Shown here one piece after another: positions 722 through 37,665 of a stretch of 64,000 bases of DNA. Positions within the stretch are counted from its first letter, which is position 1; each line of letters begins with the position of its first letter. The notes below the pieces were generated by a model that did not search any database, was not told where the DNA came from, and saw nothing but the letters and a program-made list of their open reading frames with translations. Origin of the DNA: an archaeon (GTDB lineage Archaea > EX4484-52 > WAPT01); contig JAPDKB010000009.1 in the NCBI GenBank assembly GCA_029258795.1, positions 22,564-86,563 on the forward strand. The letters are read 5' to 3'. Both the position numbers and the translations under genes were made by a program.

Positions 722-847
722 TGGCGAGCCCGGGGGGATTTGAACCCCCGACCTACAGGTTAGAAGCCTGCCGCTCTTTCCGGACCGGAAAGCCGGAAAC
801 GCAGGAAAGCCCAGCTTTCCGAGGTGTCCAGGCTGAGCTACGGGCCC
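722..847 (-). tRNA. tRNA-Arg(UCU) with a ~47 nt non-canonical intron in the D-loop; CCA encoded
   Basis: Reverse complement folds as GGGCCCG-TA-GCTC-AGCCTGGA[intron]AAA-GAGC-G-GCAGG-CTTCTAA-CCTGT-AGGTC-GGGGG-TTCAAAT-CCCCC-CGGGCTC-G-CCA. The intron holds two hairpins, GGAAAGC..GCTTTCC and TTTCCGG..CCGGAAA. Confidence 0.65.
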
Positions 848-1030: not shown

Positions 1031-1359
1031 TACGGGAGGGTGGAGTAAGCCCCCTTCTGTTACGCGCGTCATGGCAGCTCCACGAAATTGCTGGAAGGAG
1101 CCACCACCTGATGCGCGCGGAGCATTAGACTGAGCGGGCACAAAACCCTTGCACCTGAGGTGGCGCGTTTCACCCCGCATGAGTGACCTCAGCTCCATGC
1201 ATCATCGCATTTCCTCATGCGGGTGTCGTTTCTGCTCCACCCTCATGCCCTTCCGGCACGGCTCTCTCGAGCCAGCTAACCTGCCTTGTGGCAGGCGGTG
1301 GGGGGACTTTCCTCACGCAGCAGATAATGCTGCGCGATAGCTCCGCACACCCTCCCGCA
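1031..1359 (-). ncRNA. rnpB: RNase P RNA (type A-like)
   Basis: GC-rich segment, ~330 nt. The minus strand reads P1 CGGGAGGGTG...CACCCTCCCG, a P3 hairpin GCGCAGCattatctGCTGCGT, the P4 5' strand GAGGAAAGTCCCCC and the 3' ACAGAAGGGGGCTTAC (P4 pairing AGTCCCCC/GGGGGCTT), with a GGGTGAAAC CR-II-like motif. Confidence 0.75.
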
Positions 1360-2197: not shown

Positions 2198-5146
<2,949 letters not shown>

Positions 5147-5301: not shown

Positions 5302-5375
5302 TGGACCCTGAGGGATTTGAACCCTCGGCCTCCGCCTTGCAAGGGCGGCGATCTTCCAGGCTGATCTAAGGGCCC
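5302..5375 (-). tRNA. tRNA-Ala(UGC) in the 16S-23S spacer, no intron, CCA not encoded
   Basis: GGGCCCT-TA-GATC-AGCCTGGAA-GATC-G-CCGCC-CTTGCAA-GGCGG-AGGCC-GAGGG-TTCAAAT-CCCTC-AGGGTCC-A. The G3:U70 identity pair is present. Confidence 0.9.
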
Positions 5376-5461: not shown

Positions 5462-7044
<1,583 letters not shown>

Positions 7045-7385: not shown

Positions 7386-7502
7386 GGTGGGGGCCGGGAT
7401 TTTCGGGATGTGTGTTGATTTTGGTGAGGAATTTTACACTTTCGAACCCGGGTCAGAGGCTCCACAGGCCTCCATTCTAGACCAGGCTAAACTACCCCCA
7501 CC
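7386..7502 (-). tRNA. tRNA-His(GUG) with G-1 and a ~40 nt intron in the T-loop
   Basis: G(-1)-GTGGGGG-TA-GTTT-...-GAAT-G-GAGGC-CTGTGGA-GCCTC-TGAC-CCGGG-TTCGAA[intron ...CCCGAAAA]T-CCCGG-CCCCCAC-C. The extra 5' G pairs with discriminator C73. Confidence 0.65.
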
Positions 7503-8701: not shown

Positions 8702-8836
8702 TGGTGCGGGGGGTGGGACTTTCAGCTGCGAAGCCTCCAGCAATTATTCAGCTTTCTCCGCAGCATTCGAACCCACGAAGGCACTGAGCCACGGGACCCT
8801 GAATCCCGCGCCTTTGGCCAGGCTCGGCAACCCCCG
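8702..8836 (-). tRNA. tRNA-Leu(CAG) with a ~47 nt intron in the T-loop; CCA encoded
   Basis: GCGGGGG-TT-GCC-G-AGCCTGGCCAAA-GGC-G-CGGGA-TTCAGGG-TCCCG-[long variable arm]-GTGGG-TTCGAA[TGCTGCGGAG...CGCAGCTGAAAG]T-CCCAC-CCCCCGC-A-CCA. Confidence 0.7.
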
Positions 8837-8862
8837 CACTTCAAGCAAAGAACATGAATTAA

Positions 8863-12217: not shown

Positions 12218-12336
12218 TGGTGCCCCCGCCGGGATTTTCAGCCGCTTATTCTCTCTCGAAGTAGAGCATGACGGCATTTGAACCCGGGTCATCGGCTCGA
12301 GAGGCCGATATCCTTGCCTGGCTAGACTACGGGGGC
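12218..12336 (-). tRNA. tRNA-Glu(CUC) with a ~42 nt intron in the T-loop; CCA encoded
   Basis: GCCCCCG-TA-GTCT-..-GGAT-A-TCGGC-CTCTCGA-GCCGA-TGAC-CCGGG-TTCAAA[TGCCGTC...GGCTGAAAA]T-CCCGG-CGGGGGC-A-CCA. Confidence 0.65.
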
Positions 12337-13887: not shown

Positions 13888-14007
13888 TGGTGCAGGGGGT
13901 GGGATTTCCACGCTTCCGTGCAATTATCGGAAGCGGTTCGAACCCACGACGGGCCTGCGCCCACCGGATCTTAAGTCCGGCGCCTTTGACCTCTCGGCCA
14001 CCCCTGC
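13888..14007 (-). tRNA. tRNA-Leu(UAA) with a ~33 nt intron in the T-loop; CCA encoded
   Basis: GCAGGGG-TG-GCC-G-AGAGGTCAAA-GGC-G-CCGGA-CTTAAGA-TCCGG-[long variable arm]-GTGGG-TTCGAA[CCGCTTCCG...CGGAAGCGTGGAAA]T-CCCAC-CCCCTGC-A-CCA. Confidence 0.7.
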
Positions 14008-17847: not shown

Positions 17848-18674
17848 CGTCCTACCATGACGGGGATCCTCTCAGCATATTCCTTAAGTTCAACTACACC
17901 TCCCCTTCCGGGAGAGAACAGGTGAATGAATGTATGGAATATTCCTGTCAGCCGAGAAAGCTGCATGAGATTCATTCTCCTGTAACCACGGAAAGCAAGG
18001 TATAAAGCTATTATCGGCGCTTCGAAGATTATTATCTTTTCAGGGAACTTCTCAAATCCTTCTTCTGCCAGGGACAGATATTTCTCCTTCTTCATTTTTC
18101 TCAGTAGTTCGTAATCCATTCTTATCATTTTCGGATACTCCTCGAGAACAGAGGCGAGATAGTATGATAGCGGATATATATCATCGGTTCTTCTGATCAT
18201 TCCCTCAATTTTCTTCAGCTTTTCCTCAAAATCCCTGAACTCCCTCTCAGAAATTTCAACTGCTTTTATTGCTGTGTAATTCTTCCTCATTTTTTCCATG
18301 GTTTCCTCAGCATACTCTCTGAGCATCCCCCTATAATCGGGAGAGTTCAGAATTTCGAATATTCTGGAGAGGTGAACCTCTATCTTATTCAGAGCCATTT
18401 CAGTTTCCTTAGATCTTCTTGCAGATTTCATATACCCAAGTCTGAATATCTCTGTGGGATACTCTCCCATTTTCTCTTTTAGCAAAGGCCTGTAAGCAAG
18501 AATCGAAGCAATTGCAACTTCTTGAACTTTCATCATGAATATTGTTAGGAACAAAAGTAATATATATGTATTTGGCAAATCCAAATTCTTGCTCTCATCG
18601 AAGAAGTTTATAATGTTTGGCATTTCTCGGTGGGAGGTCGAGCTACCATCATATAACTTCTTAATACCCTTCAA
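17844..18674 (-). CDS. Hypothetical protein, 276 aa, with one N-terminal TM; translationally coupled to the PIN gene
   Basis: ORF only; one hydrophobic helix near residue 40. Confidence 0.45.
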   Translation of the reverse strand: MKGIKKLYDGSSTSHREMPNIINFFDESKNLDLPNTYILLLFLTIFMMKVQEVAIASILAYRPLLKEKMGEYPTEIFRLGYMKSARRSKETEMALNKIEVHLSRIFEILNSPDYRGMLREYAEETMEKMRKNYTAIKAVEISEREFRDFEEKLKKIEGMIRRTDDIYPLSYYLASVLEEYPKMIRMDYELLRKMKKEKYLSLAEEGFEKFPEKIIIFEAPIIALYLAFRGYRRMNLMQLSRLTGIFHTFIHLFSPGRGGVVELKEYAERIPVMVGR

Positions 18675-18949: not shown

Positions 18950-19080
18950 TGGTTGCAATTGGCGCCGCGGGCAGGATTTTCAGATGCGGGAAAATCAAAG
19001 TCCCACAACCTTCGAACCTGCGCGCCCTTACGGGCACCGGCTCTCAAGGCCGGCGCACTACCAGGCTATGCGACCGCGGC
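18950..19080 (-). tRNA. tRNA-Ser(UGA) with a ~34 nt intron in the T-loop; CCA encoded
   Basis: GCCGCGG-TC-GCAT-AGCCTGGTA-GTGC-G-CCGGC-CTTGAGA-GCCGG-[variable arm TGCCCGTAAGGGCGC]-GCAGG-TTCGAA[GGTTGTGGG...GCATCTGAAAA]T-CCTGC-CCGCGGC-G-CCA. Confidence 0.65.
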
Positions 19081-37547: not shown

Positions 37548-37665
37548 TGGGCCGGCCAGGATTTTCAGCTGCGGAGTTCCAGCATATTCAGCTTTGCTCC
37601 GCAGCAATCGAACCTGGGACCTCTCCCGCGTCAGGGGAGCGTCATAACCCCTAGACCACCGGCCC
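37548..37665 (-). tRNA. tRNA-Val(GAC) with a ~44 nt intron in the T-loop; CCA not encoded
   Basis: GGGCCGG-TG-GTCT-AGGGGTTA-TGAC-G-CTCCC-CTGACGC-GGGAG-AGGTC-CCAGG-TTCGAT[TGCTGCGGAGC...CCGCAGCTGAAAA]T-CCTGG-CCGGCCC-A. Confidence 0.7.

Follow-up and report, generated by a model that had tools for sequence, protein, structure and literature searches.

Background

The canonical intron of archaeal tRNA genes interrupts the anticodon arm, with its 5-bp stem and 7-nt loop, at position 37/38, i.e. between the sixth and the seventh base of the loop. Introns in the T-loop at position 59/60, which are the subject of this report, share with it this arm geometry and a 3-4-3 hBHBh' motif in which the cuts follow the second bulge base on either side. 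The two sites differ in the part of the motif that is supplied by the exons: at 37/38 it includes the anticodon and must therefore match its host, whereas at 59/60 it would consist of the near-universal T-arm and could render the intron portable. Group I introns and archaeal rRNA introns that home by means of an intron-encoded endonuclease likewise spread to an intronless allele or site at a defined position. The T-loop introns reported here differ from these in being 45-47 nt long without an open reading frame (ORF), in having no Rfam ribozyme match, and in their non-allelic target. The acquisition of non-canonical introns by archaeal tRNA genes has been the subject of one systematic study, in which transposition was deduced from clusters of similar sequences in the Thermoproteales.

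To our knowledge the transposition of tRNA introns has so far been described only in the Thermoproteales. In this order similar introns in distinct tRNA genes have been read as large-scale intron transposition (Fujishima et al. 2010, via PMC4090602 and PMC4033280), and these reviews give the mechanism as unknown and supposed to operate at the DNA level. As described there, these transposed introns have several features in common with the pair found by us in the genes for tRNA-Leu(CAG) and tRNA-Val(GAC): within a single genome, short BHB-type introns with more than 70% similarity occur in evolutionarily distinct tRNA genes, the recipient site forms a BHB motif, and the intron has no ORF. They are interpreted as late gains, a reading that for the present pair is tentative. 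The present case differs from the account of these reviews in that the host lies outside the order, all copies occupy the single position 59/60 instead of many positions, and an intronless ortholog with identical exons exists in a close relative. The two introns agree in 41 of 48 alignment columns (>70% similar) and reside in distinct host genes; a late gain would agree with the absence of the intron from tRNA-Val(GAC) of four contigs of close relatives (L114, L115, L116, L118), while the unrelated introns at the same site in two more distant ones (L120, L122) would fit a replacement or re-gain as well. In its sequence features the Leu/Val case matches transposition of the Thermoproteales type in a different lineage, and does not form a new category.

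Many disrupted tRNA genes have been reported for DPANN lineages (PMC5829648). In ARMAN-2 (Candidatus Micrarchaeum acidiphilum) the tRNA-Pro(GGG) gene has a strict hBHBh' intron at position 59/60 and the tRNA-Cys(GCA) gene a relaxed one, which the organism's own endonuclease cleaves in vitro (PMC3239211). ARMAN-2 resembles the probably DPANN-like host of the present introns in the insertion position and in being a DPANN-type archaeon with many disrupted tRNA genes (56% in ARMAN-2). It differs in that no sequence relationship is reported between introns of different tRNA genes, and also in intron length, with 13 nt for the ARMAN-2 tRNA-Cys intron as compared to 32-47 nt here (PMC3239211).

Interrupted tRNA genes in the window

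The 64-kb stretch of DNA that was analysed as a whole (the window) was scanned with a custom procedure for a T-stem together with a 7-bp acceptor stem, where an insert was permitted after TTCRA. Six tRNA genes on the minus strand were found to have a T-loop split between positions 59 and 60 (Table 1), and after in silico splicing ARAGORN called all six with the expected anticodons. Together with one gene that is interrupted in the D-loop, this brings the number of tRNA genes with non-canonical introns to seven of the eight in the window, leaving tRNA-Ala(TGC) inside the 16S-23S spacer as the only uninterrupted gene. The D-loop insert of about 48 nt belongs to tRNA-Arg(TCT) (726-847, minus strand), for which the ARAGORN call at 722-800 and the Rfam match at 729-796 represent a truncated or misfolded version.

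Three tRNA genes were found by ARAGORN in default mode and two by Rfam at gathering score, some of these calls being wrong, so that seven of the eight genes were missed or mis-called by standard tRNA finders. As such tools miss interrupted genes, the tRNA complements of metagenome-assembled genomes (MAGs) of this kind will look falsely incomplete.

All six T-loop introns possess a terminal hairpin and end in YGRAAR, since this stretch supplies both the pairing partner of T54-R57 and the 3' bulge. The first-pass annotation had placed the genes and their inserts where we find them, but both of its intron strings lack one T: for a splice site at 59/60 the first intron base is the T directly after TTCGAA in Leu and after TTCGAT in Val. 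Its location of the tRNA-Leu(CAG) gene likewise holds, except for the end coordinate 8836, which is one base short of 8837.

Table 1. tRNA genes of the window with a T-loop split at position 59/60, and the exons and introns of the Leu(CAG) and Val(GAC) genes.
Feature	Position in window	Strand	Remarks
tRNA-Leu(CAG) gene	8702-8837	-	encoded CCA included; custom scan; spliced form called tRNA-Leu(cag) by ARAGORN
tRNA-Leu(CAG) exons	5' 8766-8837, 3' 8702-8718	-	
Leu(CAG) intron	8719-8765	-	47 nt, T-loop 59/60, UGCUGCGGAGAAAGCUGAAUAAUUGCUGGAGGCUUCGCAGCUGAAAG; blastn self-match coordinates
tRNA-Val(GAC) gene	37548-37665	-	CCA not encoded; custom scan; spliced form called tRNA-Val(gac) by ARAGORN
tRNA-Val(GAC) exons	5' 37607-37665, 3' 37548-37561	-	
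Val(GAC) intron	37562-37606	-	45 nt, T-loop 59/60, UGCUGCGGAGCAAAGCUGAAUAUGCUGGAACUCCGCAGCUGAAAA; blastn self-match coordinates; paralogous copy of the Leu(CAG) intron
tRNA-His(GTG)	7387-7501	-	41-nt T-loop intron 7400-7440, unrelated to the Leu(CAG)/Val(GAC) pair
tRNA-Glu(CTC)	12222-12336	-	42-nt T-loop intron 12235-12276, unrelated to the Leu(CAG)/Val(GAC) pair
tRNA-Leu(TAA)	13892-14007	-	32-nt T-loop intron 13905-13936, unrelated to the Leu(CAG)/Val(GAC) pair
tRNA-Ser(TGA)	18964-19080	-	34-nt T-loop intron 18977-19010, unrelated to the Leu(CAG)/Val(GAC) pair

Homology of the Leu(CAG) and Val(GAC) introns

It had been proposed from the first inspection of the sequence that the introns of tRNA-Leu(CAG) and tRNA-Val(GAC) are homologous, and the alignment bears this out. 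Over 47-48 alignment columns both introns share 41 identities (85-87%); the differences amount to 2 mismatches and 3 small indels, and the identity covers the unpaired interior bases (AAAGCTGAATA, TGCTGGA) as well as the ends. The spliced exons of the two genes are 53% identical, the former being a class II and the latter a class I tRNA.

Since the 3' end of a 59/60 intron must pair with T54-R57, the first base and the last six bases of each intron were trimmed before the shuffle test. The trimmed introns yielded local-alignment z-scores of 16.5-18.4, and the observed score was reached by none of 300, 200 and 1000 shuffles, respectively. The similarity is thus not limited to the BHB-forming ends, as both the trimmed introns and their interior still match. 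An 18-base pattern taken from the intron occurs twice in the window where 0.00 occurrences are expected. The remaining four T-loop introns had been described as unrelated in sequence and prove to be so: compared with the Leu/Val pair and with one another they are 44-57% identical, which is the background level, and no z-score exceeds 4.

The homology ends one base or less from both splice sites. The base preceding the intron is A in Leu(CAG) and T in Val(GAC), the T being the native Val T-loop base of the intronless orthologs described below. We consider it very probable that the introns of Leu(CAG) and Val(GAC) are two copies from a single family, whose sequence was transferred between tRNA genes.

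The motif at the 3' junction (CAGCUGAAAR) recurs in the interior of both introns, where it reads AAAGCUGAAUA, and the introns can be described approximately as two tandem units of UGCUG...GAG...AGCUGAA.

Predicted splice motif

The hBHBh' structure was written by hand and compared with the minimum free energy (MFE) structure. Both precursors fit the strict motif at 1 kcal/mol above the MFE, and the MFE structure of both differs from it only by an open 4-bp UUCG:UGAA helix; the fold z-scores are -3.4 (Leu) and -5.1 (Val). The outer helix is the 5-bp T-stem of the tRNA, and the central helix of 4 bp is made by T54-G57 (UUCG) and a UGAA near the 3' end of the intron. The predicted cleavage sites lie in two bulges of 3 nt each, which read AAU or AUU (5' side) and AGU or AAU (3' side), and the inner helix is the intron's own 9-bp stem of GCUGCGGAG with CUYCGCAGC. 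A terminal stem common to both introns had been noted before and is retained here, with the exception of the 3' arm in Leu(CAG), which reads CTTCGCAGC with one G-U pair and not CTCCGCAGC. Pairing reaches 97% of the cells in an alignment of the four clear members of the family, as compared to 38-53% in slid-partner controls, and the intron helix contains one compensatory pair.

A cut after the second base of each bulge, followed by ligation, would restore a 7-nt T-loop. For Val(GAC) the restored loop is exactly the loop of the intronless orthologs, and the spliced sequence is that of the orthologs in L118 and L114. According to this structural model both inserts are predicted protein-spliced tRNA introns of the archaeal BHB type, with the splicing endonuclease (EndA) and an RtcB-type ligase as putative processing enzymes. 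A Pfam scan of 28 ORFs of the window gave no match to the splicing endonuclease (tRNA_int_endo).

Other types of insert were considered and discarded. A self-splicing group I or group II intron has no Rfam match at either locus up to E 10, and the inserts are far too short for it. The C/D box guide RNA borne by an intron, as in archaeal tRNA-Trp, would require the C motif RUGAUGA and the D motif CUGA in their proper arrangement; read directly from the Leu and Val intron sequences, CUGA occurs twice and UGAUGA is absent. A snoRNA-like Rfam match is found elsewhere in the window, far below threshold.

Presence and absence of the introns in close relatives

To locate syntenic loci of relatives, the CysRS and MetRS encoded nearby served as protein queries, followed by contig look-ups. 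The nearest relatives form two species groups with a CysRS that is 85-86% identical to that of the window (contigs L114, L115, L116 and L118). Variation of the intron among close relatives had been named beforehand as a point to be checked, and for tRNA-Val(GAC) it was found: the gene is intronless in all four contigs of the nearest groups, its exons being identical to those in the window or different by one base. The Leu(CAG) gene of these same contigs, among them L114 and L118, has a 50-nt intron at 59/60, which is clearly homologous to the one in the window.

The Leu and Val introns of the window are 85% identical, the window Val intron is 74-77% identical to the Leu introns of L118 and L114, and the window Leu intron is 65-69% identical to these same orthologs. 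As the value within the window exceeds the one between Leu orthologs, the two window copies share the most recent common ancestor. Judged by the aligned introns, the Val(GAC) copy has kept more ancestral states than the Leu(CAG) copy of the window.

The orthologous introns of tRNA-His and tRNA-Leu(TAA) cannot be aligned between the window and its relatives. A second difference in presence and absence concerns tRNA-Ser(TGA): contig L125 (14003-14085) has the gene without an intron, the window with a T-loop intron of 34 nt. A Logan assembly made independently (L127, 7370-7486) contains exactly the window sequence of this gene. Contig L125, with a SecY 78% identical to that of the window, was attributed by us to the species group of L114. 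Its tRNA-Glu(CTC) gene (18251-18371) has a 48-nt T-loop intron, TGCTGTGGAGCAGAGCT...GCTCCGCAGCTGGAAA, in which 15 of 17 bases match at the 5' end and the 3' arm is the one common to the Leu/Val family. Against the window Val intron it gives a z-score of 5.8, with 1 of 1000 shuffles reaching the score, and it is unrelated to the intron of the window's own tRNA-Glu(CTC). The L125 gene is a probable third host of the family, while one must keep in mind that the likeness lies mostly in two stem arms which are complementary to each other and do not count as independent evidence. A phage-type integrase gene lies directly beside tRNA-Glu(CTC) in L125 (18587-19384), and another beside tRNA-Leu(CAG) in the more distant contig L120 (11756-12556).

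The CCA end is not encoded by the Val(GAC) gene of the window (...GGCCCATAG, 37548-37561) and is encoded by its intronless orthologs (...GGCCCACCA; L114 8012-8089, L118 8014-8089). Retro-processing as a route of intron loss, to which this difference could point, was discarded, as several intron-bearing genes of the window encode CCA too; the difference is probably a coincidence. In L114 and L118 (8012-12113) the block of MetRS, tRNA-Val and GNAT adjoins that of CysRS and tRNA-Leu(CAG), with 3.9 kb between the Val and the Leu gene. The blocks are separate both in the window, where they are 29 kb apart (8702-37665), and in the outgroups, which argues that the adjacency in L114 and L118 is a derived rearrangement.

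More distant relatives and an inverted copy

In more distant MAGs, with a CysRS identity of 78% (contigs L119/L122 and L120/L123), the Val(GAC) genes of L120 and L122 have introns at the same 59/60 site, the sequence of which is unrelated to that of the window. In the L120 gene (1700-1852) the T-loop intron is accompanied by one in the D-loop. Leu(CAG) in L119 (8716-9014) and L120 (11518-11718) contains a D-loop intron and, in addition, a T-loop intron of 97-153 nt; these two long T-loop introns are partly alike (z 8-9). Four intronless tRNA genes were found in L128, a still more distant genome.

One of these genomes, GCA_053998655.1, has a 68-nt T-loop intron in tRNA-Val(GAC) (L122 16297-16364) and a 102-nt T-loop intron in tRNA-Glu(CTC) (L119 5740-5773), which have 33 of 34 bases in common in reverse-complement orientation (z 21-24, blastn E 1.3e-11). 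The common segment forms the 5' end of one intron and lies near the 3' end of the other. By its sequence this pair looks like an inverted intron copy between two tRNA genes, although it concerns another genome and another intron family than the Leu/Val pair of the window.

Taken over the contigs compared, the T-loop introns are a clade-specific and fast-evolving feature that is subject to gains, losses and replacements. As the Val(GAC) sites of L120 and L122 are occupied by unrelated introns, a fresh gain in the window lineage and a replacement or a loss with subsequent re-gain are both compatible with the distribution. The Val(GAC) site may have been occupied ancestrally and then have lost its intron in the group of L114 and L118. 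Likewise, the event in the window lineage may represent the replacement of an older intron, or a loss followed by re-gain, and not a first insertion.

Alternative explanations

Since introns at 59/60 are constrained by the pairing with the T-loop and by their terminal helix, two of them might become alike without common descent, and the shared YGRAAR end and the terminal hairpin of all six T-loop introns of the window agree with such convergence. Under the same constraint, however, the other four introns match at the background level only, whereas the Leu/Val pair retains its z-scores after removal of the constrained ends and is identical in the unpaired interior bases too. Convergence is thereby effectively refuted, both by the trimmed-end shuffles and by the four introns that occupy the same position with no relation in sequence, and we regard it as extremely improbable. 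Hardly more credible is vertical inheritance, either from one ancestral intron-bearing tRNA gene or in the form of two ancient introns retained side by side. The 59/60 site is indeed occupied in most tRNA genes of the clade, and a T-loop intron in Val(GAC) also exists in L120 and L122. Against this stand the 53% identity of the exons, which belong to different tRNA classes, the unrelated sequence of the L120 and L122 introns, and the intronless Val gene of the nearest relatives. Orthologous introns furthermore diverge fast, down to 65-69% for Leu and beyond alignment for His and Leu(TAA), so that an ancient Leu/Val pair could not have remained 85% alike.

The contig of the window derives from a metagenome assembly, and the Leu and Val loci were not found in a second assembly, which leaves room for the suspicion that the Val intron was mis-assembled or mis-binned from reads of the Leu locus. 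A chimeric join would give identical sequence, though, and 2 substitutions and 3 indels separate the two copies, each of which lies in its correct and distinct exon context. Both introns moreover form intact BHB motifs, and the T-loop intron of the neighbouring Ser(TGA) gene is reproduced exactly in the Logan assembly, so such an artefact has next to no probability. An unlikely explanation, if less remote than the preceding ones, is that Leu and Val each obtained their intron separately, with no donation from Leu(CAG) to Val(GAC), from a third donor, which could be an outside tRNA gene, a virus, a plasmid or an integrative element. It would be in line with the family's occurrence in tRNA-Glu(CTC) of L125, with the higher identity of the Val copy (74-77%, as compared to 65-69% for the window Leu copy) to the Leu introns of L114 and L118, with the integrase genes next to tRNA-Glu in L125 and tRNA-Leu(CAG) in L120, and with the fact that only 64 kb of the genome were read. 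It is opposed by the lack of any family copy outside tRNA T-loops in the window and in L114-L127, by the absence of matches in the viral collection and of att-like repeats near the integrases, and by the presence of the family in Leu(CAG) of each of the three subclade species, so that Leu(CAG) is the simplest reservoir.

Origin and possible route of transfer

Under the favored reading, a transfer between tRNA genes, the intron family would be ancestral in Leu(CAG) for the small clade of the window and its nearest relatives, and a Leu(CAG)-type sequence would have reached the same position of Val(GAC) in the window lineage after this had separated from the nearest relatives sampled. As one genome of the species was available and 64 kb of it were read, the actual donor might be a tRNA gene elsewhere in the genome.

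A hint towards a mechanistic aspect arises from the splice motif itself. Its exon half at 59/60 is composed of the T-stem and UUCR and should be the same in virtually every tRNA; with such a near-universal exon half, a T-loop intron might be spliced from any other T-loop without adaptation. This suggests a simple rule for the recurrent insertion at 59/60. As to the route, we lean slightly towards a copy made at the DNA level, by short-homology recombination or template switching, with GGTTCRA and TCC as the shared flanks. The main alternative, reverse splicing with subsequent reverse transcription, is in our view rather unlikely, although for the window pair it is still compatible with the limits of homology, which coincide with the splice sites. 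The inverted copy in GCA_053998655.1 can be taken as a hint of a DNA-level process, since reverse splicing cannot yield a reverse-complement segment; an invertible, hairpin-like DNA segment could give rise to such a copy. The first-pass annotation had suggested transposition or homing between tRNA genes. The movement between tRNA genes agrees with our results, while homing driven by an endonuclease is excluded, as 45-47 nt leave no room for an ORF.

Further copies of the family were searched for in several collections. Contigs of the genome collection, scanned with the pattern GCTGCGGAGN{0,2}AAAGCTGAA, gave 113 matches, none of which is a tRNA T-loop intron; the pattern is loose, the matches are mostly bacterial, and we judge them to be due to chance. 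The metagenome contigs contain no match to the T-loop/intron junction of the family and none to the 5' exon of tRNA-Val(GAC), and the viral contigs none to either intron family (Leu/Val and the inverted pair of GCA_053998655.1). An integrative element as vector was also considered and rejected: beside the integrases of L125 and L120 no att-like direct repeat was detected, apart from one 14-nt match in a coding region that we ascribe to chance.

The locus represents an unusually clean case, with Leu(CAG) as the likely donor, Val(GAC) as the recipient and an intronless ortholog with identical exons in L118. Going beyond this pair, one may speculate that the 59/60 BHB introns in this thermophilic, DPANN-like clade constitute a population of tiny non-autonomous mobile elements, which would be portable via the universal T-arm, would turn over by gain, loss and replacement within the time that species take to diverge, and would move at the DNA level and insert in either orientation. 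We put this forward tentatively and with more doubt than conviction. If true, it would be a regime distinct from the multi-position transposition of the Thermoproteales, and would provide natural before-and-after alleles for the study of tRNA intron gain in archaea.

Host and further features of the window

The host is probably an uncultured, DPANN-like thermophile, a weak placement derived from protein comparisons. The best named relatives are Candidatus Aenigmarchaeota and other DPANN archaea for SecY (about 54% identity), Woesearchaeota and Nanoarchaeota for MetRS (about 51%), and Archaeoglobus for CysRS (58%). Some of the close relatives come from hydrothermal samples, judging by the record names.

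An archaeal RNase P RNA gene adjoins the 16S-tRNA-Ala-23S rRNA operon in the window (1034-1356, 2204-5143, 5302-5375); the window yielded no 5S rRNA gene. The 16S rRNA gene (5462-7044, minus strand) is about 105 nt longer than the archaeal Rfam model, with inserts, which may be expansion segments or BHB-flanked introns, of 47 nt at about model position 636 and of 16 nt near position 70.
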